Shown piece after piece: positions 1,967 to 48,891 of a stretch of DNA of 64,000 nt. The notes beneath the pieces were generated by a model. That model was not told the origin of the DNA, did not search any database, and saw only the letters and a program-made list of their open reading frames with translations. Position 1 is the first letter of the stretch. Every line of letters begins with the position of its first letter. A program made the position numbers and the translations under genes. Source of the DNA: Candidatus Altimarinota bacterium (GTDB lineage: Bacteria > Patescibacteriota > Gracilibacteria > UBA1369); the NCBI GenBank assembly GCA_963677745.1, contig OY782391.1, positions 64,001 through 128,000 of the forward strand, written 5' to 3'.

Positions 1967-1985
1967 ATTTAACTAAATTCGTCCA

Positions 1986-2213
1986 ATGGATAACCAAACA
2001 ACCGTCCAAAGAATCCTGAGATCCGAGCTGTCCTTTTACGGGACGATTATCGCTGCTGTTATCTCGATTGCCGCCTTTTATTTTGGGGTGACAAATCAGA
2101 TAAATTTAATTGCCCAAAAGCTTGACACTCACCTTGAGGCAACAGCTTATATGCCGCTTAAACTAACGGAAATTGGCGAAAAGGTGGCGGTACTTATTAA
2201 CCAAAATAAATGA
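1986..2213 (+). CDS. Small single-TM phage protein
   Basis: Hydrophobic FYGTIIAAVISIAAFYFGV followed by coiled segment. Confidence 0.55.
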   Translation: MDNQTTVQRILRSELSFYGTIIAAVISIAAFYFGVTNQINLIAQKLDTHLEATAYMPLKLTEIGEKVAVLINQNK

Positions 2214-2428
2214 GCCATCAGCGACTAAATGAATATCTCTACGATTTGGAGCGCGTCGAGGACGTCAGAAACAAACTTCCACCAGGCGACAGACGCGGCG
2301 AAGTGGATAAAGTCACAAGGCGGATCCGGGAAATGATCTGCGAGGCTGACGGGGCAATAAGTCAGCACCGAAACGTCGAAAATATGCTGGCGCGCATCAG
2401 AAACTTAATAAATATCGTCTTAAAATGA
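2210..2428 (+). CDS. Hypothetical phage protein
   Basis: 4-nt overlaps with both neighbours. Confidence 0.5.
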   Translation: MSHQRLNEYLYDLERVEDVRNKLPPGDRRGEVDKVTRRIREMICEADGAISQHRNVENMLARIRNLINIVLK

Positions 2429-3087
2429 GCACATTATCAAGTCTGGTTTCAGACCTCAGGAATTACATAAAATCGGACCCCAACGATAAAATTTGGGGAA
2501 GTGCAATAAAAGAATCGGCGATAAATTCCGCTTATTTCCAGATCCAGAAAGACGGAGGTTTCAGATGGCCCCAGAATGAAGCGTCAACAACTCAAGTCAC
2601 AGTCGGAGGAACGGCGGAATATGCTTTGCCAACCGACTTTATCAGGCTAGAAATGGTCCAGTTTTCCGATACTTTGGGGCAACTCACCCCGACGACAAAA
2701 CAGGCTGCCATGAGAAATGGCACGACCAGCCAGGGCAGACCATCAAATTACTATCTTTGGAATCAGAAACTTGGCTTTTATTCTACCCCGGACACGGCCT
2801 ACCCGGCAAACATTTTATACCGAAAACGCCTGGCGACATTAACCGGCGTCCAGGATTCACTTTTTCCGTCCGATTTCGATAACGCGATCGTCCGATATGC
2901 GGCTTATATCCTTTGGTCAACGACCAAAAACCAGCCCAAAACAGGGCAGGCGTTGGACGATTACCGCCTGATGTTGGGAATGTTAAAAGACGCTTATTTA
3001 TATCAAGACACCGCCATGATTTCATTCCCTTATCAACGGGGAGTGTCCAGGCGGAATAAATTTGACCCCAAAATACTAGATGCGTAA
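2425..3087 (+). CDS. Head-tail adaptor (tail tubular protein A-like)
   Basis: Size, position, EYALPTDF and GRPSNYY motifs typical of podovirus adaptors. Confidence 0.6.
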   Translation: MSTLSSLVSDLRNYIKSDPNDKIWGSAIKESAINSAYFQIQKDGGFRWPQNEASTTQVTVGGTAEYALPTDFIRLEMVQFSDTLGQLTPTTKQAAMRNGTTSQGRPSNYYLWNQKLGFYSTPDTAYPANILYRKRLATLTGVQDSLFPSDFDNAIVRYAAYILWSTTKNQPKTGQALDDYRLMLGMLKDAYLYQDTAMISFPYQRGVSRRNKFDPKILDA

Positions 3088-8003: not shown

Positions 8004-10865
8004 ATGGTTGCAGAAACAATCACAACGGGAAACTGGGGCAGAAACAAAAAAAGATTACCGCCGGCGGTTGAATCAATGCCGGATCAACAGGTAAAAAGGG
8101 GAGTTGATTTAGCCGGAACTCAAGTCCAAACGCCAGACGGAGCCTACACAATGAAACCAGCGAGCGCAGGCGGTTTACCCATGGCAAGGGTCGGACAAAC
8201 GATCCCGGAACTGAGACAGCCCAGACTTCCGGCAACAGTCGCCACCTCAGATAATCCGTTAATTCAAAAAGGACAGCCGGTCACTACCGCAACAACCGAC
8301 CCCAGACAAAAGGAGGTCGAAATTATGGTAAAAAGAGCGAAAAACGAAAGCCTCAATGACGAAGATTTGCGCTTTTTGGCCAACAAAGAACTGGAATCGC
8401 GGAATGTAACTACCCCCGTCGCAGCTACCTCACCAACCCCGGTGGTTACACCTGACGACATCAACGCAATGACCCCTGAACAAAGACAGGCTTACGAACA
8501 AAGCGGATTTAATGACATCAGGGACCAGCAAATCGGGGCAATCGACGAATTCGGCCAGGCACAGCAAGATGTGTTTGGAAAAAGGATCGCCGCTGCCGAA
8601 GATCAACTCGCAGAAACAAAGTCACAAACGGAGCTGCAAAATAACGAACTTTTAAAAGCTTTCGAGGCAGAACAACGCCAGGCGGCGGAAGGCTCAAAAC
8701 AAGACATAATAGAGGCCGGAGCCGAAGGAATGAACACTTTACAACGCAGCGCGGCAAGACGTGGAATGAGCCGGTCCAGCGATACTGAGGGGGCCATCGC
8801 GAAAGCAACTGCCAACACTCAAAAACTTGTCGGACAAATTGAACTCGCAACAAATTCGGCAATCAGGACTTATCAGGTTGAACTTTTGGATAAACTGGAC
8901 CAAAAGATGACCAAATTACAGGACAGGGTCACAAATCTTGGTGATGCTGCCGCCGATGCTGAATTGTCGGTTATGAAAGAAAAGCAGAAAACCTATGTCG
9001 ATTTAATGAGCCAGGATCCGACCAATCCCAAAAACATGATCGCCCTTGCCGATAAATTAAAAACTCAGCAATTGGCAGAACTCAAGGAAAACAACGAGGC
9101 CGCAAAAGCCCTTAGAGCTGATGCAAAAGCCAATTTCCAATTTATGATTTCCAGTTTTGGAAGCCAGGCGTTTGCCAATACGTCACCTGAGGAAATGGCA
9201 AATCTTGCCGCAAATCTCGGCGTCCCAGTAAGCACATTATCGAAAATGCCTGCCACCCTGAAAGAACAGGAAAATGACTGGGAAAAACTCAAATATTCCG
9301 CTGATCGTCAATGGGACGCTCAAAAATACGCTCAGGACAGGGAGGATAAATTTGCCATTGAGGATTTGAAAACAAGTAACGATTGGCAGAAATTACTTTG
9401 GCAGGCTGCCCGTGATGACGAAAAATCCAGCAAACAATTGGATAATATTTTGGCATCGGTTGGCATAGATTATGCAGACAAAGCGTCCGGGGCAACACCA
9501 AGCGCGATGACTTACGATGTCCCCGTTCCTCACCCGGTAAGCGGCGACGCTGTTGTTTCTGTGAATACCAACTTAGCCTTGGCGAAGCCCGAAGGTTACA
9601 AATATTCTACCAGCGGTGGTCCTTTGGCCGGTCAATGCGCCTGGTATGCTGAACAACTCACAAATTTGGGAGGCAAAAACTGGACCATCGGTAATACGCT
9701 TTCGGAAAAACAAAATAATCTCGCCGGAAAGGTCAAACAAGGATTGGCGTTTTATCCAGGACAGGACGAAATAAAGGTTGGTCAGACTTTAATTACCAGC
9801 GATTCCCAGACTTATGGCCACGCTGCCGTTGTGAACGGAATTACTGCCGATGGAAAACTGATTTTGACTGAATCAAACTATGCCGGTCCGCTCAAAGTCA
9901 CAAATACCAGAACGGTTGACCCCAACGATCCGAAGATTATCGGAATCCTGAAAACCACCCCGAAACCCCAATATCAGATCGCCAAGGCGGCGGTCAACGC
10001 GATCGGATCCGTCACCGACAAACTGGGACCGCTTGGGAAACTTGTTTCAGGGATTGGAAAAGAAAACCCCAATATCGGCGAATCAATTGCACAGACTTTG
10101 GCCGGTTTCTTGCCCTCAGGGGAGACCCCGGAACAACCGACGGAAACACCGACCGAACAACCGGGACAAAATGCTTTGAACGAAACGCAAATCAGGGGAA
10201 TTGACAGCCTTTCAGCGGACGAAAAAGCATTACTCAGACAGCAAGCCCCGGAGGTTTGGAATATGTATTTGCAGAGCGGAGGGGCAAAAGACCAGGCGAG
10301 CGCGTCTGATGTCAGAATGACCAGAAAAGAGGTTTATTCCATGCCGGTAGTCAAGAACTTTGAGGCGTTAAACGACACTTTCGAAAAGATGGATTCCTCC
10401 TACAAGGCATATAAAAAAGGCTCCATTGCCAAGGGCGGCGTCGATCAGGCGTTGGTGATGATGTTTAATAAGATGCTGGATCCGACCTCAGCCGTTAGGG
10501 AGGGCGAATATGCAAGAACAGCGCAGGGACAGTCTGCCCTTGATCGAGCCCAGCAGTATGTCGCCCAGTTATCTCAGGGGGGCGCAGGTATTACAGACAA
10601 AACCAGATCCGACATGGTTGACCTTGCGAAAGAATTACAGGGCGCGGCGCAGCAACAGTTTAACAGCCAAATGAAATTTTACGTCGATCTGGCCCCGGAA
10701 CTTGGCACGACACCTCAAAATCTCCTTGGTGCTTATTATCAGTATTACCAGCCCGGACAGACGGGAGGTCAGAGCGTAAAAGTCCAAGGCCCAGACGGCA
10801 ATTTGTATGAAATGACCCCGGAGGACGCTCAACTTGCAGTCCAACAGGGCGGAAAAATAATCTAA
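8004..10865 (+). CDS. Internal virion / DNA-ejection protein with CHAP peptidoglycan hydrolase domain
   Basis: Long helical Q/A/E-rich body; CHAP triad context GQCAWY...GHAAVV...LTESNY at about 9620-9960. Confidence 0.75.
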   Translation: MVAETITTGNWGRNKKRLPPAVESMPDQQVKRGVDLAGTQVQTPDGAYTMKPASAGGLPMARVGQTIPELRQPRLPATVATSDNPLIQKGQPVTTATTDPRQKEVEIMVKRAKNESLNDEDLRFLANKELESRNVTTPVAATSPTPVVTPDDINAMTPEQRQAYEQSGFNDIRDQQIGAIDEFGQAQQDVFGKRIAAAEDQLAETKSQTELQNNELLKAFEAEQRQAAEGSKQDIIEAGAEGMNTLQRSAARRGMSRSSDTEGAIAKATANTQKLVGQIELATNSAIRTYQVELLDKLDQKMTKLQDRVTNLGDAAADAELSVMKEKQKTYVDLMSQDPTNPKNMIALADKLKTQQLAELKENNEAAKALRADAKANFQFMISSFGSQAFANTSPEEMANLAANLGVPVSTLSKMPATLKEQENDWEKLKYSADRQWDAQKYAQDREDKFAIEDLKTSNDWQKLLWQAARDDEKSSKQLDNILASVGIDYADKASGATPSAMTYDVPVPHPVSGDAVVSVNTNLALAKPEGYKYSTSGGPLAGQCAWYAEQLTNLGGKNWTIGNTLSEKQNNLAGKVKQGLAFYPGQDEIKVGQTLITSDSQTYGHAAVVNGITADGKLILTESNYAGPLKVTNTRTVDPNDPKIIGILKTTPKPQYQIAKAAVNAIGSVTDKLGPLGKLVSGIGKENPNIGESIAQTLAGFLPSGETPEQPTETPTEQPGQNALNETQIRGIDSLSADEKALLRQQAPEVWNMYLQSGGAKDQASASDVRMTRKEVYSMPVVKNFEALNDTFEKMDSSYKAYKKGSIAKGGVDQALVMMFNKMLDPTSAVREGEYARTAQGQSALDRAQQYVAQLSQGGAGITDKTRSDMVDLAKELQGAAQQQFNSQMKFYVDLAPELGTTPQNLLGAYYQYYQPGQTGGQSVKVQGPDGNLYEMTPEDAQLAVQQGGKII

Positions 10866-13315: not shown

Positions 13316-13449
13316 TTTTTTGATTATTTCAATTTATCCTATTTAAACACAATCATTTGCTATTGGTCAAATGTATTGTCTGAATCATGCCTTGATCCGT
13401 TTTGGTGGGGGTATATGATCGAAAAAATAAATTAAATAACCCACAAATT

Positions 13450-14232
13450 ATGGCAAGAAAACAGCCGGTCCAGCTTTCCTTGATACCTCACGAGATCCAG
13501 TCAAATATCGTCACACAAAGAGCCGTTGACGGATATATTAACGCCACGGCCATGTGTAAGGCGGCCGGGAGGGAGTTTTCAGAATATAAGAGGAACAAAG
13601 CTACTATTGCCTTTATTGACGCCCTTTCTGCCGAGCTGGGAATTTCACAGGACGGCTTAATTCAGTCCATTGTCGGAGGCGTCCCGGAATATCAGGGGAC
13701 TTGGATTCACCCTCAAGTCGCAATCCATTTGGCCCAATGGCTTTCCCCTCAATTTGCTGTCCAGGTATCAAAGTGGGTTTTTGAGTGGCTTTCTGGTGGA
13801 GGAAAGGACACTATGCCCTATCACCTGAGGCGGTACATAGCCAACAGGGGAAATATTCCTCACACTCACTTTTCTATTCTGAATGAGGTTATATTTGGGC
13901 TGGTCGCTCCGTTGGAAAGCCAGGGGTACACATTGCCCGAAAAACTGGTCCCGGACATCTCAGAGGGAAAAATGTTTTCGTCCTGGTTGATCTCAAAGGG
14001 CATAGATCCTAAAAAATTTCCCAGATATTACCATCGTTACGAGGACGGCCGGGTCGTAGATGCCCGATTATATCCCAACGAGGTTTTGGCCGAATTTAGA
14101 CAGCATTTTAATGAGGTTTGGCTGCCGGAAAGGTCAAAACTGTATTTTCAGGAAAGAGACCCAGAGGCTTTGCCATATCTGGAACAGGTGCTAATCGCCA
14201 TCGGTTACAACAAGCCAAAACAACTCAATTGA
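13450..14232 (+). CDS. KilA-N domain protein, BstA-like C-terminus
   Basis: KilA-N: QRAVDGYINATAMCK...GTWIHPQVAIHLAQWLSPQF; C-terminal HFS.L.E..VPDIS.G..Y.H.Y..YP..LAEFR. Confidence 0.8.
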   Translation: MARKQPVQLSLIPHEIQSNIVTQRAVDGYINATAMCKAAGREFSEYKRNKATIAFIDALSAELGISQDGLIQSIVGGVPEYQGTWIHPQVAIHLAQWLSPQFAVQVSKWVFEWLSGGGKDTMPYHLRRYIANRGNIPHTHFSILNEVIFGLVAPLESQGYTLPEKLVPDISEGKMFSSWLISKGIDPKKFPRYYHRYEDGRVVDARLYPNEVLAEFRQHFNEVWLPERSKLYFQERDPEALPYLEQVLIAIGYNKPKQLN

Positions 14233-15379: not shown

Positions 15380-15994
15380 ATGCAGGCAATTTTCATTGAG
15401 GCCGGCCATGGAAAGTCTCTTTTAGGCATAAAAAAAGACGTCGGAGCGGTGGGAAAATTTGGCTCAAACGTCTATACTGAAAGATCAATTGTCCTGGAAC
15501 TGGCCCGGCGCATCATCACGATTTTAAAAGCCAAGCCAGAACTCAAACATTGTTTGATTCAAGGGAATGGTGTCGAAACTGATGCGACGATCAGAGCGAA
15601 AATGAAATACGTAAATACAGTAATTCAAGAAAATCGGTTTTTACCTTCCAAGTGTCTTGGTGTTGCAATCCACATGAACGCCAGCGGATCAAATCAACCA
15701 GGCGGATTTGAGACATGGTATCAAGTAAACGGGAAAAGCAAGCCACTTGCTGAATATATGGTTAGGGCTTGGCAAGAATACAAAATCACACCTTTGAGGC
15801 CGAGGCCGCTGAATAACAATAAAAATGGGCGTTACGGGCGATTCTATACCGACGACGCGCTTTGTCCTTACGTCATTATCGAAACTTCTTTTATTTCCAA
15901 TCTTGAGGACGTCAAATCAATTATCTCGAATTATGACCGGGCGGCCGAATGTTTGGCACATGGCATAATGGAGTTTATCAGAGCAAATGGCTAA
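15380..15994 (+). CDS. Endolysin, N-acetylmuramoyl-L-alanine amidase (Amidase_3)
   Basis: IEAGHG, E(R), AIHMNA, IIETSFISN zinc/catalytic motifs. Confidence 0.9.
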   Translation: MQAIFIEAGHGKSLLGIKKDVGAVGKFGSNVYTERSIVLELARRIITILKAKPELKHCLIQGNGVETDATIRAKMKYVNTVIQENRFLPSKCLGVAIHMNASGSNQPGGFETWYQVNGKSKPLAEYMVRAWQEYKITPLRPRPLNNNKNGRYGRFYTDDALCPYVIIETSFISNLEDVKSIISNYDRAAECLAHGIMEFIRANG

Positions 15995-16379
15995 AAAAAA
16001 CCGTTACTCGCAAACAATCCATCACGTCGTCCCAAGTTCCAGACGGGACGAGGGGTTTGACACTTCAAATAAACGCAATTTAAGGGATCTCCGCAAAACC
16101 TACCATGAAAACTGGCATCGTCTTTTTGCAAACAAAACGCCGGCTGAGATTATTGATTCGGTTGTCCAGATGCAGCACAATGTCATAAATCAAAAGGTCA
16201 GACGGGTAATTGAGGGGCTTTGCGATTTACCAAAATCTGATTTTTACATTCCAGACGTGTTGACCGAATATGCCGACGAAGATTTCGACCCGATGGACGT
16301 TGAGCTGGTCCGGGGAGAATTAAAAAAGCGGATCCAAGAATTACTTGACTGGATCGACGGTTTTAACGGTGATGTTTAG
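15987..16379 (+). CDS. HNH-like protein
   Basis: TIHHVVPSSR...N...HENWHRLF. Confidence 0.55.
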   Translation: MAKKNRYSQTIHHVVPSSRRDEGFDTSNKRNLRDLRKTYHENWHRLFANKTPAEIIDSVVQMQHNVINQKVRRVIEGLCDLPKSDFYIPDVLTEYADEDFDPMDVELVRGELKKRIQELLDWIDGFNGDV

Positions 16380-17241
16380 AGTGGATTTCCTGTAAATATT
16401 TGTCGGTAACGTGGGTATAAACCTGGGTTGTCGTTATTGAGGCGTGGCCCAAAAGTTGCTGAATTGCAGGCAGGGGAGCACCATTCCTTAAAAGCTCAGT
16501 TGCAAATGTATGGCGCAAACTATGGGGAGTAACTTTTTTCTTTATTCCGGCTTTCAGGGCGTAGGTTTTTACAATTATTTCGATCATCGCAACGCCCAGG
16601 CGTTTACCATTCCCGGAAACAAACAGCGCGTTTGATTTATCAGTCCTAAGGGACAAATACCGATCAAGACTTTTTCGGGCGACGTCCGAGATAAAAACAA
16701 GCCGATATTTTCGGCCTTTTCCTAAAACCCGGACATTGTTACTCAGCACATCGTCCCGATTCAAACTGGACAACTCCCGGACCCGGCAGCCGGTAGAATA
16801 CAAAACCCGGATTATCGCCGTGTTACGAATCGACCTGAACAAATCACAATCTTTTATCTCAAGTAATTTTTTCAGCTCCGGCATTTCCAAATAACACGGC
16901 TCCGGCCTGCTATATTTACAGGTTTCTATTTTATAGTATTTCAGCGTCGGGAAGTCCCGAATAAAACAAAATTTCAGAAATTGTCGGAGGACGATCAGGT
17001 GATACTGGACAGAGTTAAAACCGAGCCCCTTTTCCCTTAGTTTTAGGCGGAAACTATCAATATCCGAGCAATCTATCAGCTTTATATCTTTTCCCCGTAA
17101 AACCTCTAAAAACGCATATAAACAAGACTTGTAGTTTCTGAGCGTAAAAGGGGAGTAATTTTTGATAATTTCTAAATACTCTAGATATTTGTCAATCAAG
17201 TCAAGCACATGGTAAATCCGCCCGTCCACTATTTCACACAT
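16363..17241 (-). CDS. Tyrosine recombinase, XerC/XerD-like
   Basis: TGCRVREL, GKGRK, HSLRHTFAT, LLGH, TTTQVYTH (R-K-H-R-H-Y); 292 aa, no arm-binding N-domain. Confidence 0.95.
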   Translation of the reverse strand: MCEIVDGRIYHVLDLIDKYLEYLEIIKNYSPFTLRNYKSCLYAFLEVLRGKDIKLIDCSDIDSFRLKLREKGLGFNSVQYHLIVLRQFLKFCFIRDFPTLKYYKIETCKYSRPEPCYLEMPELKKLLEIKDCDLFRSIRNTAIIRVLYSTGCRVRELSSLNRDDVLSNNVRVLGKGRKYRLVFISDVARKSLDRYLSLRTDKSNALFVSGNGKRLGVAMIEIIVKTYALKAGIKKKVTPHSLRHTFATELLRNGAPLPAIQQLLGHASITTTQVYTHVTDKYLQEIHSKHHR

Positions 17242-24060: not shown

Positions 24061-24732
24061 TTAGAAGTTAGGAGGTGAAATATCGCGGTCCGGGACGACA
24101 ATGTCGTTTAACCAAAGTTCTTTATCGGTTGCGGATCCGTCTTTTGGAGCGCGGTAATAAACCCTATCGCCGTTCTTAACTACTGCATACCAGGATCGGC
24201 CCTCAAAAGCCCCGGTTACCATATCGTTACCGTCTTTGTCCTTGCCCTGGTAAGTCCAGTATTTATTCTTTCCTTCCCGGGCCTGTTTTGCGGCTCTAGT
24301 AGGGGAATTGCCGTCCTCTTTTTGGTCATCTTTCTGGGTGTTTTTCCAGACATCTTTGCCTATTTCCAGATAGGAGCCAATCTTGGTGAGGGCATCGGTC
24401 ATGGCCCCTTTCAGGGCGTCGCCCTTGTCCTCGTTGTCGTTTCCACCAAACTGTTCAAGCTCGATGTCATATTCTTGGACGGTAAAAGTTGCCTTGACAG
24501 TAAGCATTCGGGAAACTTTTTGCTCACCTTGTTTTGTCGTATATTCGCGATTTTCCTCGCCCAAACATTCGGCCTTTAATTTCCAGCCGCCTATTCCAAA
24601 CACTTGGTTTAGACGTTCGGTTACATAGATGGCGTTAATTGAGGAAAGGTGTCGTTTGGTCGGGTGCGGTTTGATTGCTTCGGGCGGTAAAGGCTCTCGA
24701 AGCATCGCCGCCAGATTTTCAGGTAGTTTCAT
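24061..24732 (-). CDS. Rad52/Sak-family single-strand annealing protein
   Basis: LREPLP..I..LSSI...YVTERLNQVFG.GGW...KGAMTDAL.K. Confidence 0.8.
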   Translation of the reverse strand: MKLPENLAAMLREPLPPEAIKPHPTKRHLSSINAIYVTERLNQVFGIGGWKLKAECLGEENREYTTKQGEQKVSRMLTVKATFTVQEYDIELEQFGGNDNEDKGDALKGAMTDALTKIGSYLEIGKDVWKNTQKDDQKEDGNSPTRAAKQAREGKNKYWTYQGKDKDGNDMVTGAFEGRSWYAVVKNGDRVYYRAPKDGSATDKELWLNDIVVPDRDISPPNF

Positions 24733-25223: not shown

Positions 25224-26888
25224 CTATGAATAGTTGCCATGGTTTACAGGCACATTCAATCTCTTTGCCAGATTTTCAACTGTCATATTCTTCAGTGAAT
25301 CTGAATTTTGAGTTTCCAGAAATTTATAACAAGCAGCCGCTTTGCTTCCGCTGTCAAGACCCAGCATGAAATTTACAAACCTTACTCTGTTTTGAATAGC
25401 CAGCAAATCCCCATAATCCCCTTTTGGAGTGCCTTCATTATTGTTTTTGCCGCTAATTATCATCATCAGATTTCTAAATACAATGGCCTGCGTCGGATTC
25501 ATCGGCACCTTGGCAATATCGGTCGGAACAAAGAGTTTTGATGCCATCTCATACATGGCACGATTGGAAATAATCGAATTTAGTTCAGGACTTACGTAGC
25601 CACGCTCCGGACTATTGGAAGATTCCATTTCGTGGCCAAGATACAATATATTAACCTCTTTTTTAAATTCATTTTCACCAACAACAGCTGATCCGTTAAT
25701 CACACTGTCATTAAAAATATAGACGTTTTTAGGCTTTCCCTGTTCATCCAACAAAGGTTTTCCGTTCTCCATCAATTGTCTTACCTGAAATTCCGATACC
25801 TGACCTTCTCCGCTTTTACTCGGAAATTTAATCTGATATACCCCCGGCCTGATCTGATTGATGGCAATTTCAGTGTTTTCCGACAATTTGCTACCGGCTG
25901 AAATGTCAACATAGCCATAATCGGAACCGTTGAAGGTGGAAGGAGCGGTTGAAGCCACGGTTTTCGTTGCTTCCTCCTGTTTTTTCTGCTGTTCTTCCAG
26001 TTCTTTCGCTTTTGCTTCAGCCAATTTAGCCAATTCCTCATTCCATTTTTCCTCAGTCATCGTTTCGTCGCCCATCCAGGCCACCATATCCGTATTTAAA
26101 TCCTTGACTGTTTTCTTGGCCACCAGCATTTGTTTGTAGTCGCCCATCAGATCAGCAAACAGGCTTTCTATACTTGTTTTCAGGGGCTCAATGGCTACTT
26201 TATCTCCAAGATCGGAAAATACTCCTTCCTTGAATCCTTTTAGCAGACCATCCTTCAATTTTGCCTGTTCCGACCCTTCCGCATTAAAATAATCCTCGAT
26301 CTTGATGCGATTGTCAGGATTGTCAAAAAACGCAGCGCTTTTAACATTTATTTCTTCGGCTTTCTTTGCTTTACCCGCTTCCCTCTTTTCCGGATCCTCC
26401 TCCTTGGTCAGGTCTGTGTAAATTTGGTCGACATACTTGGTAATTCTTTTAAGCATCAATTCATTCCGGATATTCTCCAATTCTTTTTCCTGATTTTTCA
26501 AAACAAATTCTTCAATGGACATACTGCTTCTGACCGGCTTGCCGTTTTCATCCAATGCAGTCAGGTATTGATCCCGCCAACCATCCGGTTTGCGGTAACT
26601 CTCCGTATTCCATTTAAAATCCCTGAATACTTTTTCATAGGCTTTTTCAGGATTTTGCAGCATCTCCTCTTCCTGATTTTTCTTTTCTTCCTGCTCATTC
26701 ATTTTGGCTCTGACTTCTTCGCGCACGCTGGAAATCCTTTCAGCTTTTTTAGTCTGAAAACTTTCGCGTTTTTTCTCACGCAATCTGTTCAGCATCGCCA
26801 AATTATCGGCTGCCAAACCGGGCATTTTCCGCGGTTCTCCTGGGGCTTGTTCGATCGGGTGCGTTTCTAATGGTTTGGCTGGGGACAT
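25224..26888 (-). CDS. Hypothetical protein, E/K-rich coiled coil
   Basis: 554-aa ORF, no recognised motif. Confidence 0.75.
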   Translation of the reverse strand: MSPAKPLETHPIEQAPGEPRKMPGLAADNLAMLNRLREKKRESFQTKKAERISSVREEVRAKMNEQEEKKNQEEEMLQNPEKAYEKVFRDFKWNTESYRKPDGWRDQYLTALDENGKPVRSSMSIEEFVLKNQEKELENIRNELMLKRITKYVDQIYTDLTKEEDPEKREAGKAKKAEEINVKSAAFFDNPDNRIKIEDYFNAEGSEQAKLKDGLLKGFKEGVFSDLGDKVAIEPLKTSIESLFADLMGDYKQMLVAKKTVKDLNTDMVAWMGDETMTEEKWNEELAKLAEAKAKELEEQQKKQEEATKTVASTAPSTFNGSDYGYVDISAGSKLSENTEIAINQIRPGVYQIKFPSKSGEGQVSEFQVRQLMENGKPLLDEQGKPKNVYIFNDSVINGSAVVGENEFKKEVNILYLGHEMESSNSPERGYVSPELNSIISNRAMYEMASKLFVPTDIAKVPMNPTQAIVFRNLMMIISGKNNNEGTPKGDYGDLLAIQNRVRFVNFMLGLDSGSKAAACYKFLETQNSDSLKNMTVENLAKRLNVPVNHGNYS

Positions 26889-26915
26889 TTTTTGGCATTA
26901 AATCCCCATATTATA

Positions 26916-28523
26916 TCATTTTTCCAGTCTTTTCACCATATACGTCCCTTCCTGATGATAACCCAGCTTTCGGTAATATTCTCTCACCCCAATGCCGGAA
27001 ATAACTGCCAGCTTGTGAAAACCGTTTTTTAAAGCAATGTCCTCCGCGGTCTTCATCATTCTTCGGCCCAAGCCTATGTGCTGTGAAACATCCCGTTCCT
27101 TGCTATCTATGGACACCAGTTCACCATAAGCATGCACCTCTCTTATCAAGGCAGCTCCCTCCAGTTCCGTAATAAAATGTTTCTTGCCCTGCAGAGAATA
27201 TGAAGAAAACCTCAATCTGAGCAAAGAACATAATTTATCGCTGTCGGGCTGATCATAACTGATAAAAAACTCCTGTCCGCCCGATGCTTCAAATTGCCTT
27301 ATATTCATGCTCAAATCTGACAAATTGACTTTCTGCTCCTTAATTTCACGGCTGCGTATATCACGCGACGTAATGCCGCGCAAAGCCATTTCTGTTTCCA
27401 CAAATTGCCTGAGATTGGAGAGTTTGGAGCCGGCAATAACGGTATCCGAGGGGATGTCCCTGTAAATTCTGGTAACTCTCACATATTCCGGCCAGAGCTG
27501 GGTCATTTTTATCATCAATTCTATCAGTTCTGTATCACTGTAACTTTTATATTTCCCGTTACGGTAAACCTGTTCCAGCTGAGACCAGGGCACCACAATG
27601 CAGGGATATACTTTCATCCAGTCAGGCCTGTAGGCGGGGTTTGCAAACAACTCCTTCATGTCCGCCAGATCAATTTCGGGTGTAGAGCCGTACAAATTCG
27701 GCATCATATGAACATTAATCTTGAAAGCTGCGTCTCGCAACAATTGCATGGCCAGCTTCGTTTCGGCAATGCCATGACCACGTCTGTTCATTTCCAAGAC
27801 TCTGTCATTTAGAGACTGTACCCCGATTTCCACTTTGGTGCAACCTAGCCGCCTCAGATGCAAAATTTCTTTCTCATTCACATGATCAGGCCTTGTTTCG
27901 AAAGATAAACCAATACAGCGGTTATCGGCCTTTTCATTGCGCTTTTGAGCCTCCAATAAGGTTGTGGCCGGGGGGAGCGGGTAATTTAAAGCATTGAAAA
28001 TGCTTTTGGTAAAATCATTCTGATAGCGCTTCGGATAAAATGAAAACGTCCCCCCGGCCACAACCAGATCTATTTTGTCTGTTTTATGACCGGTTGTCTT
28101 CAAGGAAAAAAGTCTGTTTTTGACCTGCCGGTAGGAGGAAAACTTATTCAGTATTGCTCTCATCATGGCCGGCTCATTGGAAAGATAACTCTTGGGCATT
28201 CCCGGTTCCGTCGGACAAAAAAGACACTTTCCCGGACAGGGAAAAGATTTAGTAAGTACAGTAATATTGGCGATACCCGATTTGGTGCGGACTGAACGCC
28301 GTCTGAGAAACTTTAAAAAATCCGGATTTTCAGCCAGACTCCCCTCTTTAACCATTTCCCGGTAAATTCGTATCAATTCCACATTGGTAACCGATGAAAC
28401 CCGGTACTTTGAACTGATCTCATTTTTGAGACTTTGCAGCTGCTGCTGGCTGGAAAGCTTTTCGGAGTAAGCCCTCTCAATCAACTCTCTATAGGCATTT
28501 TCATTAACTTTTCGCTTCAACAT
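26916..28523 (-). CDS. elp3: Elp3 tRNA uridine(34) carboxymethylase (radical SAM + KAT)
   Basis: CPGKCLFC, PKSY, ETRPD, QHIGLG, ISGIGVREYYRKLGY. Confidence 0.95.
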   Translation of the reverse strand: MLKRKVNENAYRELIERAYSEKLSSQQQLQSLKNEISSKYRVSSVTNVELIRIYREMVKEGSLAENPDFLKFLRRRSVRTKSGIANITVLTKSFPCPGKCLFCPTEPGMPKSYLSNEPAMMRAILNKFSSYRQVKNRLFSLKTTGHKTDKIDLVVAGGTFSFYPKRYQNDFTKSIFNALNYPLPPATTLLEAQKRNEKADNRCIGLSFETRPDHVNEKEILHLRRLGCTKVEIGVQSLNDRVLEMNRRGHGIAETKLAMQLLRDAAFKINVHMMPNLYGSTPEIDLADMKELFANPAYRPDWMKVYPCIVVPWSQLEQVYRNGKYKSYSDTELIELMIKMTQLWPEYVRVTRIYRDIPSDTVIAGSKLSNLRQFVETEMALRGITSRDIRSREIKEQKVNLSDLSMNIRQFEASGGQEFFISYDQPDSDKLCSLLRLRFSSYSLQGKKHFITELEGAALIREVHAYGELVSIDSKERDVSQHIGLGRRMMKTAEDIALKNGFHKLAVISGIGVREYYRKLGYHQEGTYMVKRLEK

Positions 28524-28604
28524 AAATTCTCTGGTTTTCCTTGCTATGACGCCCTAAACTGATAAAGTAATTCTCGTGAAAAAGCAATTATTTCAGCATA
28601 AAAA

Positions 28605-29336
28605 GTGAAAAAAGCAAAAATTGCCAAAATCCTGGAAGACGTCAAGAAATCCTATAATCTGATTGCAGATGAATTTTCCGATACCCGCAATTACAGTTGG
28701 GAGGATTTCAATTATTTTAAACAGTACTTGTTTGAAAATGCCGAAATAGTTGATTTGGGCTGCGGAAACGGCAGACTTGTCAATTTTCTGGAAAAATACT
28801 ACCTGGGAAAGCCATATCGTTACGTGGGACTTGATAATAGCGAGGCGCTCCTGAAAAAAGCCCTGGATCTGCATCCCCACCAGGTATTTTTACCGGGCGA
28901 CCAAATGGAGATACCTTTGTCCGAAAACCAGGCTGATTTGGTCTTTGACATCGCCGCCTTTCATCACATTCCGTCAGTCAATTTGAGAAAACAATCGCTT
29001 TTGGAAATTAAAAGGGTACTTAAACCCGGCGGCATTTTGGTTTTGACAGTCTGGAACCTTTGGCAGAGAAAATACTTATGGCCCAATCTAAAAGCCTGGC
29101 TGGAATTTCTGATTAGTTTCGGAGGCATTGCTCCAAATGATCTTTTTATCCCCTGGAAAAACTCCCGCGGAAAAGTTGTTTCTTCACGCTATTATCATAA
29201 TTTCTTGCCGGTAGAATTAAACAATCTGGTTAAAAAGGCCGGATTTTCCGTAATCAAGGCCTTCCCCTCACGCAACGGACATAAGACCTCTCTTTTTAAT
29301 AGCTACAACTATATTTTGATCGCCAAAAATGAATAA
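28605..29336 (+). CDS. Class I SAM methyltransferase, Trm9/ALKBH8-like
   Basis: YNLIADEFSDTR..W, DLGCGNGR, IAAFHH, DLFIPW, RYYHNF..EL. Confidence 0.8.
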   Translation: MKKAKIAKILEDVKKSYNLIADEFSDTRNYSWEDFNYFKQYLFENAEIVDLGCGNGRLVNFLEKYYLGKPYRYVGLDNSEALLKKALDLHPHQVFLPGDQMEIPLSENQADLVFDIAAFHHIPSVNLRKQSLLEIKRVLKPGGILVLTVWNLWQRKYLWPNLKAWLEFLISFGGIAPNDLFIPWKNSRGKVVSSRYYHNFLPVELNNLVKKAGFSVIKAFPSRNGHKTSLFNSYNYILIAKNE

Positions 29337-30206
29337 TAAGGTAGATATTCTGGGAATTCCGTTTACATCTCTATCTGAAGAGGAAGTCCTGAATTTTATT
29401 AAAAATCATCTTAACAATCACTCCTCTCCCCCTCTTTTTGTTGCTACCCCCAATCCTGAAATGCTTCTGGAATCACATAAGAACTTGTTGTTTAAAAAAA
29501 ATATTCAACAGGCGGGATTGAATCTTCCGATGGTAACGGGCTAATCTGGGCCAACCGCTTTTTGTCAAAAATGTCAGGAAGGAAAAACAAAATAATGATT
29601 GCACTGTATGGAGCATTTAGTCTGCCTGCCTTTCTTTTTCATCGAAAGGTAACCGGACAGCGTTTCCAAAAAGCAATTCACGGTTCGGATCTGACCATGA
29701 AAATATGCCAGGATTCCGTAATTGGCAGCCAGGGGATTTTTCTCCTTGGTAACAAGTATGGTCTTCGGGCCAATACAGCAGAATTAGCGGCAAAAAAGCT
29801 GCAAAAAATGTTCCCCGCAATCAACATTTCCGGCTATCTGGACGCCACAGCCTCCGACTCTCATATTATCAGTAAAATCAATCAAAGCGGAGCCAAGATA
29901 CTGCTGGTTGCTTTTGGAGCTCCGATCCAGGAGCTGTGGATAGCCAGGAACCTTTCTGCGATGCCTGATATCAGGTTAGCCATGGGCATCGGGGGAACGT
30001 TTGATTTCATTGCCGGTATTGTGCCACGGGCACCGGTTTTAATGAGAAAACTGGGTCTTGAATGGCTCTACAGACTATATAAACAGCCGAAAAGGCTGGG
30101 CAGAATTATTAATGCCACCCTGGTTTTTCCCTATACTGTGATTAAAGACCGCCTGAATTCCTCTACCCCGGCAAATCCTGATAAACACAAAATTTCCGGC
30201 ATTTAG
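29329..30206 (+). pseudogene. WecB/TagA/CpsF (GT26) glycosyltransferase split by 1-nt frameshift near 29528
   Basis: N-part ..TPNPE..LNLP; other frame resumes DGNGLIWA..GSDL..VAFGAPIQE..GIGGTFD..RAP..LEWLYRL. Confidence 0.8.
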
Positions 30207-30606
30207 CCTGTCTCAAAGAATCCAGCTCCAGTAGTTGTTCCTCGATCAAATCTATTTTTCGCTGAAAATATTGATCCGAATAAATTTGCTTTAGTATTTC
30301 CTGTTTTTCACGTTTTTCCAAATCACTTAAATCCTTCAATTTTTCAATTTGCCGTCTTTCACTTTGAAAAACTATCAAATCGCTTGCATACTCCGCCTTC
30401 AGCATTTCAATCCTGGTCTGAATTTTTCTTTCCTCCTGTTCAAATTGATAAACGCCGGCAAATGTTTCATATTTTAATACGGTGGGACTTGATACCTGAT
30501 CCCCTGCTTTCAAACCGGCAATTCTCGTAAAATAAAACAGTAACGCCACCGCTACCAGCGCCCCCACAAAAACAATTTGCAAAATATTGTCTTTAGTCCT
30601 GTCCAT
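30163..30606 (-). CDS. Membrane-anchored hypothetical protein
   Basis: N-terminal TM plus coiled coil. Confidence 0.65.
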   Translation of the reverse strand: MDRTKDNILQIVFVGALVAVALLFYFTRIAGLKAGDQVSSPTVLKYETFAGVYQFEQEERKIQTRIEMLKAEYASDLIVFQSERRQIEKLKDLSDLEKREKQEILKQIYSDQYFQRKIDLIEEQLLELDSLRQAKCRKFCVYQDLPG

Positions 30607-30686
30607 AAATAGATTTAAGACCTATTTATATACTATTTCTGGAAAATTGCAAAATCCAGTGCTATTCTATTTCAGCAAAGTTAAAC

Positions 30687-30762
30687 GGGCCCTTAGCTCA
30701 GCTGGTAGAGCGCGGCATTCGCATTGCCGAGGTCGGGAGTTCGAGTCTCCTAGGGTCCACCA
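30687..30762 (+). tRNA. tRNA-Ala (anticodon CGC)
   Basis: Cloverleaf, G3-U70 pair, anticodon loop TT-CGC-AT, GTTCGA T-loop, encoded CCA. Confidence 0.97.
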
Positions 30763-31176
30763 TTATTTCCCCAGTTTTCTAATTGAAAAAAAGCCTTTTT
30801 TCTTCGCTTGTTCTTTTTCTTTTTCTTTTTCTAAAGCCTTTTTTGCCTCTTCCTTTTCTTTTTCAGACGGCTCACAGTAACATTCTTCCTCTCCACAATC
30901 CTTGCAGACAGCATCTTCTTTGACCTCTTCAAATCTGGTCCTGATTTTTTCCACAATTTGATGTATGAAGCCCAGACTGGCCGTCATCTCTGACAGCGCT
31001 TTCATCGGCTCCATTACAACTTCCCGTACTCTTTCCGAAACCTCCTTAAAGTTTGCGGTCATTTTGCTTACATCCCTCAAGACCAGCGTCAGATTTAGAA
31101 ACAAAACGCACAAAAAGATAACTAGAATCACAAATCCTCCTCCCAATGCGATATATAGAAAATCCAATGACGTCAT
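30763..31176 (-). CDS. DUF948-like membrane protein
   Basis: N-terminal TM then coiled coil. Confidence 0.65.
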   Translation of the reverse strand: MTSLDFLYIALGGGFVILVIFLCVLFLNLTLVLRDVSKMTANFKEVSERVREVVMEPMKALSEMTASLGFIHQIVEKIRTRFEEVKEDAVCKDCGEEECYCEPSEKEKEEAKKALEKEKEKEQAKKKGFFSIRKLGK

Positions 31177-46140: not shown

Positions 46141-48891
46141 CTATAACGGGACATCTTCGCCTGCCGGCGCTTCATTCTGTGCTTCTGCAGTCAATTGAAG
46201 CAGGGGTTTATCCTGCGATTTTTTGGTTTGCAACAACAACTCGTTTTTATTTACGGTAAGCTTCTTTTTTGGCTCCGTCTTCAAATCCTCCAACGGTTCT
46301 GCACCTTCGGGCTGTGGAAGGGCCGAATTGGCGTCCTCGTCCACATCCCCTCCTTTGCTCCAGCGCATAATTTTATCTTCTACCACCACTCTGGGTGAAC
46401 AATATCTCTCTCTGGCCAAACGGATTACTTTTTCTTTTCTTTCCGCTTCCATATCAACCTGGCGCGGAGGCAGGGTTGCCAGTGAAAAGGTCTTGGAGGG
46501 CATACCATCGATCAACAGACGCATATAGGCAGTGTATTTACTCAGATTGACCAGATCATTGGGCAACACTTCCTCTCCAAATTGTCCTGACAGATATTCC
46601 GCATCATCAAACCCCACCTGATAACTGAGGATTGTACCGACATTGCCGAAAACGGCGTCCCTGACTTCTTCCGGCATCTGGGCAATATACTGATTGGCCA
46701 TAGTCAGATTAAGTCGGTATTTTCTGGCCTCGGACAGAATGGTGGCAAAAGAATCGGTGGCAAAATTCTGGAATTCATCAACATACAGATAAAAATCGAC
46801 ACGGTCTTTTTCGGGAATATTGGCTCTGCTCATGGCGTCGATCTGGAATTTGGTAATAATCATGGAACCCAGCAGCGAGGAATTGTCTTCACCAATCTTG
46901 CCCTTAGACAGGTTGACTACGACGATTTTCTGGTTATCCATGGCCCAGCGGAAATCAATCTTGGAATTTACCTGGCCCAGAATATTTCGCACGATAGGAC
47001 TGGATAAAAACTGGCCGACTTTGTTGAGAATTGGTGAAATAGCCTCAATTTTCATTCTAGGCTCCATCATTTCAAACTCATTCTGCCAGAAACTTTTTAC
47101 CAGGGGATCTTCAATCTTCCGCACAACCTTGCGTCTGAATTCGTAATCCTGAAGTATACGCGGAATCCCCAGCATGGTGGTATTGGGATATTCCAGAAGA
47201 GACAAAACTGTATTGCGTAAAATATGCTCAAGTCTGGGTCCCCAGCTGGTGGAATAAATCTTCTTAAAGATGCCGACCAGACCGGAAGCCACAATGGTAT
47301 TCAGTGAAGGATCAATATTTTCCAGCATATTGAATGCAATGGGCCAATCACGGTCCGATGGATCAAAAATAATCACATCATTAGTTCTCCAGGAGGGCAC
47401 AAAATTCAGCACTGTTTCGGCCAGGTCGCCATGCGGATCAACCACCGCCACTCCCCTGCCGGCCATGATATCGGAATAAATCATGTTTTCCAGGATGGTG
47501 GTCTTACCCATACCGGTTTTCCCGATAATGTACATATGGCGGCGCCGGTCCAGTGTTTTAATGCCAAATTCCATATCAACTCCCCGGAAATTGGTCCGGC
47601 CTATGCCGGTGACCGGCGCCGCTTTCTCATTGGAGGCTTTTGGCAAATCGTTGGGAGGTTCTATTTTCTTCGATCTGACCCAATAAATATTGGGGGTTTG
47701 TACCGTAATATTCGGTAAATGGAAGATGGTCGCCATTTCCTTTACATTCATCAGGAAAGGACTGTCCAACAACCTTTCACGGTATCTTTCCACAATGGAC
47801 GGCTCCTTATAGATTTTTGACAAAGCAAAACCGTTAAGGGTGGGCATGTTAAACTGCTTAAAGGATCCGGCAATCTCCTTTAATTTTACTACGGAGGCAG
47901 CGTGATCTTTCTGCTTTGGTATGTAAACAATGCGAATATTTACCCCGAACAACAGACCGGACAGCTTTTCTTTAGCGGAAAGATCTCCCGAACCTTCCTT
48001 TTTTTCTTCTGTCACAGCGGGTTTAAATCTCTTGGGACTAAAAATCAGCGTAACCGGAAAAAAGATGATCCGTAACAGTGAGGAAGCTTTTACAAAATAA
48101 TTAAAATACCATTTCTGCAAAAATTTCTTTTTGATGGACGAAAAAGAATCGTAAGCTTTTTGAAGATATTTGCCTTTTTTTTCATGAATCGGGCTGAACA
48201 CATATTGTATCCAGGCCTGCTCGTCTGGATCTGAAAACTTGGCCAGCGTCGCAGTTATGGCTGAAAGAGGATCCACGTTCATCTTGGTGGATTTATCCTC
48301 AAATTGGTTATAAAGTTTGATCGGGAAAAAATCGAAATTGGTAAGTGCCAATTCCGCGCCCACCGCCGTTGCAAAAGTGTTTACAACCGAATATTCCAGA
48401 TTTTCGGAAGATTTATGGACAATCACCTGCTTGTCCCGCCCCTCACCGGTAGATTCAGGCTGATCATTTTTAGCCACTTCAACCATCTGCGGAAGACTGT
48501 AATCAGGCACATCCTCTATCTCCACATGCGGATACTGGGCATAGATCTGTCCTTCCACCAGATTACGGAGTTTTTGAGGAAAATGGACGTAAAACCTGAT
48601 ACTTCTGCCAATATTGGCTATTTCAAATGAAATTTTCTCCGGATTTACCCCTTTTACCCTTTCCCACCAGCCTATTTTGGACACAATGCTGTGAATTGTC
48701 GAAAAAACCTGTTCAGCCACCAGTGGCCCGCACTCATTATCCTTTGCCACCCGAACCATTAAAACAATCGATTTCTCTTTATTTAAAGCTTTTTTTTGTC
48801 CCCAGGAGGCCAATATTTCCATTATAATCAAGAGCAGGTATAAGCCTACCAGCGCACCCAATGACAGATTTATGATCAAAGCCCAGTTCAT
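46141..48891 (-). CDS. VirD4/TraG-like (HerA/FtsK superfamily) ATPase
   Basis: GKTGMGKT, DPHGD, YVDEFQNF, LSEARKY; architecture typical of CPR genomes. Confidence 0.9.
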   Translation of the reverse strand: MNWALIINLSLGALVGLYLLLIIMEILASWGQKKALNKEKSIVLMVRVAKDNECGPLVAEQVFSTIHSIVSKIGWWERVKGVNPEKISFEIANIGRSIRFYVHFPQKLRNLVEGQIYAQYPHVEIEDVPDYSLPQMVEVAKNDQPESTGEGRDKQVIVHKSSENLEYSVVNTFATAVGAELALTNFDFFPIKLYNQFEDKSTKMNVDPLSAITATLAKFSDPDEQAWIQYVFSPIHEKKGKYLQKAYDSFSSIKKKFLQKWYFNYFVKASSLLRIIFFPVTLIFSPKRFKPAVTEEKKEGSGDLSAKEKLSGLLFGVNIRIVYIPKQKDHAASVVKLKEIAGSFKQFNMPTLNGFALSKIYKEPSIVERYRERLLDSPFLMNVKEMATIFHLPNITVQTPNIYWVRSKKIEPPNDLPKASNEKAAPVTGIGRTNFRGVDMEFGIKTLDRRRHMYIIGKTGMGKTTILENMIYSDIMAGRGVAVVDPHGDLAETVLNFVPSWRTNDVIIFDPSDRDWPIAFNMLENIDPSLNTIVASGLVGIFKKIYSTSWGPRLEHILRNTVLSLLEYPNTTMLGIPRILQDYEFRRKVVRKIEDPLVKSFWQNEFEMMEPRMKIEAISPILNKVGQFLSSPIVRNILGQVNSKIDFRWAMDNQKIVVVNLSKGKIGEDNSSLLGSMIITKFQIDAMSRANIPEKDRVDFYLYVDEFQNFATDSFATILSEARKYRLNLTMANQYIAQMPEEVRDAVFGNVGTILSYQVGFDDAEYLSGQFGEEVLPNDLVNLSKYTAYMRLLIDGMPSKTFSLATLPPRQVDMEAERKEKVIRLARERYCSPRVVVEDKIMRWSKGGDVDEDANSALPQPEGAEPLEDLKTEPKKKLTVNKNELLLQTKKSQDKPLLQLTAEAQNEAPAGEDVPL

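Follow-up and report, generated by a model that had tools for sequence, protein, structure and literature searches.

A divergent Elp3–methyltransferase gene pair in a patescibacterium: a candidate Trm112-independent route to 5-methoxycarbonylmethyluridine at the tRNA wobble position

Introduction

Modification of the uridine at the wobble position of tRNA (U34) is nearly universal. In the textbook division, bacteria and organelles modify U34 with MnmE and MnmG (MnmEG), while archaea and eukaryotes use Elp3 or Elongator together with Trm9–Trm112. Here, we analyze a 64,000-nucleotide stretch of DNA from a Candidatus Altimarinota bacterium (GTDB Patescibacteriota; Gracilibacteria; UBA1369), corresponding to positions 64,001–128,000 of the forward strand of contig OY782391.1 in assembly GCA_963677745.1. 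We call the whole stretch the window. In it, a gene encoding Elp3 lies head to head with a gene encoding a class I S-adenosylmethionine (SAM)-dependent methyltransferase. We propose that the pair probably serves a wobble-uridine pathway in which Elp3 would make 5-carboxymethyluridine (cm5U34), a Trm112-independent Trm9-type enzyme would esterify that product to 5-methoxycarbonylmethyluridine (mcm5U34), and MnmA would add the 2-thio group (s2), all in place of MnmEG. Neither the enzymes nor their chemistry are new; what is new is that the system is found in a bacterium, lacks Trm112, and is combined with MnmA.

The closest described systems are the Trm9–Trm112 complexes of Saccharomyces cerevisiae and Yarrowia lipolytica (PDB 5CM2) and the human ALKBH8–TRMT112 complex. 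Trm9 from yeast, Yarrowia, and Haloferax requires Trm112 both for solubility and for activity in vivo (PMC4678810, PMC6144793). In Y. lipolytica Trm9 (YlTrm9), Trm112 buries six hydrophobic residues: V59, F78, V102, A110, P112, and F116 (PMC4678810). In S. cerevisiae Trm9 (ScTrm9), eight alanine mutants, R29A, D72A, H116A, W145A, W168A, R241A, Y243A, and N271A, lost zymocin sensitivity and lost most or all activity (Létoquart 2015, PMC4678810). The window protein resembles these enzymes in that it is a class I SAM methyltransferase, keeps the eight essential residues, and is predicted to act downstream of Elp3. It differs from them in that its gene stands head to head with elp3, in the lack of Trm112 and of AlkB or RRM domains, and in its family carrying charged or polar residues at two of the hydrophobic Trm112-contact positions.

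Archaea offer a second comparison. Sulfolobus solfataricus has its Elp3 and Trm9 genes in a cluster, and some archaea, though not all, carry homologues of Trm9 (PMC2584109). In Haloferax volcanii, HvoTrm9 (HVO_1032) together with Trm112 has been shown to make mcm5U (PMC6144793). As in those archaea, the window pairs a Trm9 homologue with a stand-alone Elp3, unaccompanied by Elp1, 2, 4, 5, or 6. However, HvoTrm9 requires Trm112 in vivo and for solubility (PMC6144793), and the host here is a bacterium. In addition, thiolation in archaea is carried out by Ncs6/Tuc1-type enzymes (PMC2584109), whereas the window's own genome encodes the bacterial MnmA.

Among bacterial systems, MnmE–MnmG, with MnmC or MnmM, acts at the same tRNA position, has the same decoding role, and is likewise combined with MnmA thiolation. 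The enzymes and the chemistry are nonetheless unrelated: MnmE–MnmG uses folate, flavin adenine dinucleotide, and glycine to produce 5-carboxymethylaminomethyluridine (cmnm5U). MnmE–MnmG was not found in the window's own genome, and its distribution and that of Elp3 are mutually exclusive in the 151 genomes described below. The CmoA/CmoB/CmoM pathway, which makes uridine 5-oxyacetic acid (cmo5U) and its methyl ester (mcmo5U), likewise has as its last step the esterification of a carboxylate on the wobble uridine by a class I methyltransferase; it differs from the present case in that neither CmoA nor CmoB scores over its cut-off in the window's own genome. Elp3 itself has been placed in "some bacterial clades," with the Dehalococcoides mccartyi protein DmcElp3 (PDB 5L7J) termed "a rare example" (PMC6367351), and it has also been reported from "numerous bacteria" (PMC13315578). 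PMC6367351 mentions Trm9 as the yeast enzyme. In a literature search that covered mostly non-subscription texts, we found no description of a bacterial Trm9 or of an Elp3–Trm9 pair in bacteria of the candidate phyla radiation (CPR).

A divergent gene pair

The pair is laid out as follows.

26916–28523, minus strand: Elp3, a radical-SAM plus GNAT/KAT protein and predicted cm5U34 synthase; 535 amino acids, ATG start.
28524–28604, no strand: divergent intergenic spacer of 81 bp, common to both genes and presumed to hold the promoter region.
28605–29336, plus strand: Trm9-type class I SAM methyltransferase, predicted to carboxyl-methylate cm5U34 to mcm5U34; 243 amino acids, GTG start.

The original prediction, made from the DNA letters alone, described two genes head to head across an 81-bp gap, and both open reading frames (ORFs) are present in that arrangement. 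The methyltransferase motifs it quoted, SYNLIADEFSDTRNYSW, VDLGCGNG, DIAAFHHIP, NDLFIPW, and SRYYHNFLPVEL, all occur in the translation. The GTG start is backed by homologues whose first residue falls in the same alignment column, with M1 nearly invariant in both of our alignments (A1 and A2). No sigma-70 consensus site was found within the 81-bp spacer, and a promoter and terminator scan of 26700–30800 returned 7 promoter-like sites against 7.6 expected from shuffled sequence, that is, no excess. The guess that the host belongs to the CPR also proved correct, the nearest relatives being metagenome-assembled genomes (MAGs) of Peregrinibacteria, Peribacteria, and Gracilibacteria.

A methyltransferase with the active site of Trm9

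Pfam assigns the methyltransferase to generic families only (PF08241, Methyltransf_11, 67.6 bits), and all of its NCBIfam matches fall below their cut-offs, the best reaching 55.5 bits against a cut-off of 155. Whether METHYLTRANSFERASE is Trm9-like was addressed with sequence and profile searches against all PDB chains. By single sequence, the top relative is 5cm2_Z, the Trm9 chain of the Yarrowia Trm9–Trm112 complex (E = 1.9e-13, residues 26–218), and the second match, a generic methyltransferase, covers the Rossmann core only (E = 7.5e-10). Profile A2, built from 84 homologues of the methyltransferase, again places 5cm2_Z first, at 93.8 bits, with 3l8d next at 80.0 bits. The match to 5cm2_Z spans the C-terminal D..PW and RYYH region, which lies outside the coverage of the generic models, and identity to YlTrm9 is about 23–28%.

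The residues essential in ScTrm9 can be followed into the window protein by combining the Sc/Yl equivalence table (Table 2) of PMC4678810 with the 5cm2_Z alignment (chain index + 35 = Yl numbering). Specifically, ScTrm9 R29, D72, H116, W145, W168, R241, Y243, and N271 correspond to window residues R28, D77, H121, W150, W184, R195, Y197, and N235, the last equivalence being inferred from equal distance to the aligned C-termini (model 243 = chain 230) and not from residue alignment. Across the 84 homologues, R28, D77, H121, W150, and R195 are identical in all 84, W184 in 82, N235 in 80, and Y197 in 62, with Phe in 14 more. Further conserved positions are H120 (ScH115; 84 of 84), Y17 (ScY18; 82 of 84), and Q154 (ScQ149; 79 of 84). 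The class I SAM motif DLGCGNG accompanies the SAM-binding acidic residue D77 in every homologue. The Trm9 motifs listed in the original prediction match residues that mutagenesis identifies as essential (PMC4678810), and these residues vary little or not at all among the homologues.

Among about 15 homologues that carry a source name, two bear the automatic Joint Genome Institute name "tRNA (uracil-5-)-methyltransferase TRM9," five are called "UbiE," and the rest are generic. The ESM Atlas returns only automatically named generic methyltransferase clusters, drawn from CPR bacteria and from archaea (Promethearchaeota, Thermoplasmatota). A search of representatives with profile A2 gave 1,736 clusters at E ≤ 1e-30, and close family members number at least 150 among the matches listed. 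A CmoM-type role was considered and rejected, there being no CmoA or CmoB over cut-off in the genome; no CmoM-type family is among the NCBIfam matches listed for the protein.

Linkage to Elp3 across related genomes

Conserved linkage to elp3 had been anticipated, and it is found in two data sets. For the first, a scan of GTDB with one genome per species and profile A1 yielded 479 confirmed relatives, of which the best 80 loci were used. These loci were chosen by the methyltransferase alone, and Elp3 was then sought by tblastn with the window Elp3. By title, nearly all are CPR/Patescibacteria MAGs (Parcubacteria and Peregrini-, Peri-, Gracili-, Portnoy-, Nealson-, Kuenen-, Kerfeld-, and Berkelbacteria), with a few bins otherwise labelled. 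Elp3 lies directly upstream of the methyltransferase in 68 of the 80 loci, 67 of them divergent and one co-directional (L023). The estimated gap is at most 300 bp in 62 of these 68 (median ~38 bp) and 0.4–1.1 kb in the other 6. Twelve loci lack Elp3, and three of them have less than 1 kb of upstream sequence, too short to judge. The pattern is not due to chance: the two genes stand together in 68 of the 80 related loci, which were assembled independently. Pairwise distances for Elp3 and for the methyltransferase over 60 loci correlate at r = 0.64, a value reached by none of 500 label shuffles; this fits joint inheritance, though genes sharing one set of genomes would correlate in any case. The 80 loci show no small ORF that is conserved alongside the pair, and the 10 longer homologues (E ≤ 1e-10; 7,997 candidates scored) include no fusion of the methyltransferase to Elp3 or to Trm112.

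The second data set samples the phylum: 151 genomes, comprising the window's own (G000) and 150 drawn evenly. Related genomes in this sample do not count as independent observations, and an absence means only that the searches of these genomes gave no match. Elp3 scores over its cut-off in 65 of the 151, and the methyltransferase profile matches at E ≤ 1e-25 in 56, of which 54 also carry Elp3. In 42 of these 54, the two genes share a contig and are divergent in every case; 41 pairs are immediately adjacent, and in G116 the genes are 1.1 kb apart. Some of the 12 non-adjacent methyltransferase matches score only 90–115 bits and may be other methyltransferases.

The original prediction also held that the module may replace MnmEG, and the phylum sample agrees. 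MnmG matches at E ≤ 1e-30 in 11 of the 151 genomes (10 over cut-off), and MnmE is over cut-off in 10, all within the 11 that have MnmG. By hand comparison of the lists, no genome of the 151 combines Elp3 with MnmG or MnmE. MnmA is over cut-off in 135 genomes, including 64 of the 65 that carry Elp3.

Two further features of the sample are recorded here. Neither Elp3 nor MnmG was found in 75 of the 151 genomes. In G096 and G118, a weak radical-SAM match (63–66 bits to the Elp3 model) lies right beside mnmG and could be of the MnmL/YtqA type.

Elp3 of the window

The protein was predicted to be a full-length Elp3, and it matches TIGR01211 over model positions 2–522 at 551.2 bits (cut-off 350). 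Its Pfam domains are Radical_SAM (PF04055), Radical_SAM_C (PF16199), and Acetyltransf_1/GNAT (PF00583, at cut-off). Among structures, it scores 366.9 bits (E = 1.7e-108) against archaeal MinElp3 (6ia8), 339.5 bits against the Elp3 chain of eukaryotic Elongator (8ptx_C), and 331 bits against Dehalococcoides Elp3 (5l7j). The three-cysteine iron–sulfur motif CPGKCLFC stands at residue 96, and CPGxCxxC is kept in all 61 related Elp3 proteins aligned. The acetyl-CoA motif QHIGLGRRMM aligns with QHMGYGRMLM of 6ia8 and is conserved across the same 61.

DmcElp3 is likewise a bacterial stand-alone Elp3, but the window protein differs from it in having a long N-terminal region, which aligns with archaeal MinElp3 from residue 29. 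A second difference concerns the Zn-site cysteine triad, which is described as conserved in bacterial and archaeal Elp3 and lacking in eukaryotic Elp3 (PMC6367351). In contrast to Elp3 as so described, the window protein does not have the three cysteines: at residues 383–393 (window 27360–27395), S, D, and S occupy their places, GITSRDIRSRE standing opposite CRCIRC of 6ia8. Among the 61 related proteins, the Zn-site cysteine count is three in 47, none in 7, one in 6, and four in 1. The triad is typical of Elp3 but not defining.

In contigs from four public sequencing runs, strains differ in elp3 by 13 single-nucleotide polymorphisms (SNPs) clustered at 27843–27940, 11 of them at third codon positions. 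Together they produce a single amino-acid change, R195L. The cluster is a recombination or strain-diversity patch under purifying selection.

The genome and its tRNA set

The window's own genome is a single contig of 1,335,835 bp, 97.9% complete, with one Elp3. MnmG (TIGR00136) was not found in it, the best match scoring 18.1 bits, and neither was MnmE (TIGR00450), whose best match of 117.1 bits, against a cut-off of 252.6, covers the GTPase part only. MnmA, by contrast with these, scores 376.9 bits. No match to TadA was found in the genome.

ARAGORN identifies 47 tRNAs. Thirteen species carry U34: Lys, Glu, Gln, Arg(UCU), Leu(UAA), Gly, Arg(UCG), Leu(UAG), Ala, Pro, Ser, Thr, and Val. A C34 tRNA is present in every split box. 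In its decoding the host resembles archaea: G34, U34, and C34 tRNAs serve each four-codon box, tRNA-Arg(GCG) takes the place of ACG, and TadA is not among the genes found. We infer that such a tRNA set suits a wobble uridine whose main partner is A, the behavior of nucleosides of the xm5U type (5-methyluridine derivatives).

Some details of the tRNA set stand apart. ARAGORN reports two CAU tRNAs only, so that one of the three expected (initiator, elongator Met, Ile2) may be absent or have gone undetected. A second tRNA with anticodon UGA is 71 nt long. The tRNA-Ala(CGC) gene, at window 30687–30762, is the sole tRNA of those discussed that lies inside the window.

The Trm112 question

The suggestion that the methyltransferase possibly works without Trm112 led to a search for Trm112-like genes. 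In the window's own 97.9%-complete genome, none of the 14 candidates scored matched the Trm112 family (PF03966). Across the phylum sample, PF03966 exceeds its cut-off in 5 of the 151 genomes, always within frames of 313–758 amino acids. For the 54 genomes with both Elp3 and the methyltransferase, the figure is 3, each time within a frame of 315–359 amino acids. Because no Trm112 partner was found in the genome, we regard the protein as a predicted Trm9-type catalytic subunit and do not file it as a Trm9–Trm112 holoenzyme.

The residues that contact Trm112 give a mixed picture. For the Trm112 INDEPENDENCE, 82 of the 84 homologues carry a polar residue, such as Lys, Glu, or Arg, at position 47 (the YlTrm9 V59 equivalent). 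A charged or polar residue occupies position 72 (the YlTrm9 F78 equivalent) in 83 homologues, an assignment that depends on a re-registered gapped stretch of the 5cm2_Z alignment. Position 96 varies (L 26, Q 22, I 13, E 9, K 6, V 5), and at position 110 there are 41 homologues with Phe and 19 with Ala. Judged from these alignments, the contact patch is partly, not wholly, de-hydrophobised.

The WecG/TagA neighbor

Downstream of the methyltransferase lies a third gene.

29329–30206, plus strand: WecG/TagA-type glycosyltransferase (GT26); PF03808, 147.7 bits; apparent split into 71 + 214 amino acids.

The methyltransferase stop overlaps the start of this gene by 8 nt. All contigs of four public runs, from two studies, carry one extra C behind 29526, which gives a single WecG frame of 292 amino acids. 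The extra C restores one frame, and therefore the split in the window is an assembly error.

In 39 of 79 loci, the methyltransferase is either fused to WecG or has it as the next gene downstream. Methyltransferase–WecG fusion proteins range from 469 to 542 amino acids. Proteins P0121–P0125 carry the WecG family in precomputed Pfam annotation, which hmmscan confirms for P0121, P0124, and P0125; P0143 (542 amino acids) and P0265 (500 amino acids) are also confirmed by hmmscan. At locus L024, among the 80, a 493-amino-acid ORF (1664–3145) contains both parts, and in genome G127 (C3:56719–58125) both matches lie in one open frame of 518 amino acids. The phylum sample shows WecG in 118 of 151 genomes, irrespective of Elp3; of the 56 genomes in which the methyltransferase was found, at least 11 lack WecG. 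Adjacency to the methyltransferase occurs there only in the window's order and class, in G000, G031, G058, G082, and G127 (the fused case). Since WecG is common regardless of Elp3 and its adjacency is confined, the methyltransferase's dependence is on Elp3. The WecG link may be a tolerated fusion of two overlapping genes, or something else.

A proposed pathway and its alternatives

In the pathway that we consider probable, Elp3 would use a SAM-derived radical and acetyl-CoA to place a carboxymethyl group on C5 of U34, yielding cm5U34. Formation of cm5U34 is established chemistry of the Elp3 family, and homology suggests it here. The Trm9-type enzyme, as its active-site residues and its linkage to Elp3 imply, would transfer a SAM methyl group to the cm5U34 carboxylate, giving mcm5U34, and would act without a Trm112 partner. 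MnmA, encoded elsewhere in the genome, would presumably add the 2-thio group on tRNA-Lys(UUU), tRNA-Glu(UUC), and tRNA-Gln(UUG), leading to 5-methoxycarbonylmethyl-2-thiouridine (mcm5s2U). The module would substitute for the MnmE–MnmG route, which the genome lacks.

Several observations weigh against this proposal. The profile lead of 5cm2_Z over the next PDB methyltransferase is 14 bits only. The AlphaFold2 model of the methyltransferase (predicted local distance difference test, 95.5; predicted template-modelling score, 0.92) matches class I methyltransferases at Z 20–23 in VIA-align, where METTL6 is first (Z 23.0) and 5cm2_Z is 50th (Z 20.0), despite having the highest identity (28%); Foldseek against the PDB ranks 3l8d first (8.7e-18) and 5cm2_Z second (2.6e-17). 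On this model, fold comparison cannot tell a Trm9 apart from the remaining class I enzymes. Sequence and profile searches put Trm9 first, the fold searches count neither for nor against it, and Trm9 orthology would rest on residues and context. Nine of the 80 loci have 2–6 kb of upstream sequence and carry no Elp3. In the phylum sample, the methyltransferase occurs without Elp3 in 2 of 56 genomes, G024 (a partial 96-bit match) and G069, and 11 of the 65 Elp3-positive genomes have no methyltransferase at E ≤ 1e-25. In 10 Elp3-only genomes checked, no match to the methyltransferase profile (E ≤ 1) was found within ~3.4 kb on either side of Elp3, and therefore Elp3-only lineages exist. Four of the six Trm112-contact positions remain partly hydrophobic among the 84 homologues. 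The PF03966 model has 40 positions, and a divergent or analogous partner could escape it. Finally, the tRNA reading leaves unexplained why the methyltransferase gene is associated with WecG/TagA as well, in some cases by fusion.

Some of these points feed other explanations. One is that the chemistry is of the Trm9 type and an activating partner is still needed, which could be a diverged Trm112 or a small protein of other ancestry whose gene lies elsewhere. The characterized Trm9 enzymes all depend on Trm112 for solubility and activity (PMC4678810, PMC6144793), the short PF03966 model leaves room for such a partner, and the equivalents of YlTrm9 V102 and F116 are hydrophobic in many homologues. 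We nevertheless hold this to be unlikely, though to be taken seriously: PF03966 has no match in the window's own genome and appears in just 3 of the 54 genomes with both genes, within the long frames noted above, and neither a conserved small ORF at the 80 loci nor a Trm112 fusion among the longer homologues supplies a candidate. Less likely again is that the pair acts on U34 and yields an end product other than mcm5U, from a different Elp3-dependent intermediate or by further processing to a nucleoside so far undescribed in bacteria, perhaps, in the window's class, with the WecG-type transferase. The fusions, found in at least five distinct proteins of 483–542 amino acids, in L024, and in G127, and the 8-nt overlap in the window speak for it. 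So do the trm9 mutants of yeast and Haloferax, described as showing no build-up of cm5U and instead products of the 5-carbamoylmethyluridine (ncm5U) type (PMC3110198, PMC6144793). Against it stand the presence of WecG in most of the phylum sample regardless of Elp3, its absence from a number of methyltransferase-bearing genomes, and its confined adjacency. Counting further against the processing variant, we know of no GT26 enzyme that acts on RNA.

Two other explanations remove the methyltransferase from tRNA altogether. It could act with WecG/TagA on an envelope glycopolymer or another small molecule, the Elp3 neighborhood being an inherited order. Downstream or fused WecG in about half of the loci, the overlap in the window, the recurrent fusions, and public annotations that are mostly UbiE or generic methyltransferase would fit. 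However, the methyltransferase tracks Elp3 (54 of 56) and not WecG, Elp3 adjacency is phylum-wide (42 of 54) whereas WecG adjacency is seen in one class, and the Trm9 residues that bind uridine and the cm5 carboxylate are invariant in the homologues, so that we consider this account highly improbable. The least probable of all, to our minds, is a generic UbiE/Methyltransf_11 small-molecule methyltransferase. Pfam and NCBIfam give generic families only, and the fold searches do not separate such enzymes from Trm9, yet the NCBIfam scores are far under their cut-offs, Trm9 is the top PDB match by both sequence and profile, the Trm9 active-site set is present, and the gene is linked to Elp3.

Returning to the Elp3–Trm9 pathway, its wider reach may be considered. 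A large bacterial phylum carries archaeal/eukaryotic Elp3 in 65 of 151 sampled genomes, most with a Trm9-type partner, none with MnmEG, and nearly all with MnmA. We speculate, with considerable doubt, that Elp3 and a self-sufficient, Trm112-free Trm9 could be the main wobble-uridine system of Patescibacteria, ancestral or anciently acquired from archaea, making mcm5s2U with MnmA. To our knowledge, mcm5s2U is known from eukaryotes only. If such a system is real, the GT26 fusions would hint at a further step or at coupling.

Were the proposed pathway true, mcm5(s2)U would be shown in bacteria, and the locus would add a marker to the debate on how the CPR relates to archaea and to other bacteria. 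It would also provide a natural Trm9 active without Trm112, useful for structural and mechanistic work since Trm9 alone is described as insoluble (PMC4678810).

Other features of the window

A 554-amino-acid ORF, Glu/Lys-rich and on the minus strand at 25224–26888, begins 27 bp after elp3 and has no Pfam family at the thresholds used. It was considered as a member of the module and rejected, being present in only 2 of the 80 loci.

A prophage-like region adjoins the locus, lying within window positions 1–25100, in this 1.3-Mb CPR genome. That the gene pair is prophage cargo was considered and rejected: its relatives keep it in a conserved chromosomal context (WecG, DUF948, GatB). The genes of the region include the following.

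2425–3087, plus strand: SU10-type adaptor, late gene.
8004–10865, plus strand: 953-amino-acid protein with a CHAP domain, late gene.
13402–14232, plus strand: KilA-N protein, late gene.
15380–15994, plus strand: amidase, late gene.
16363–17241, minus strand: tyrosine integrase.
Minus strand: early genes for YopX, two HNH proteins, and VRR-NUC.
24061–24732, minus strand: Rad52/22-like protein, early gene.

Farther along the window, an ORF at 55521–62009 (minus strand) encodes 2162 amino acids with no Pfam family at the thresholds used. A 916-amino-acid protein at 46141–48891 (minus strand) has weak HerA/TraG/TrwB-type coupling-ATPase domains and may belong to a DNA-uptake or conjugation-like system.

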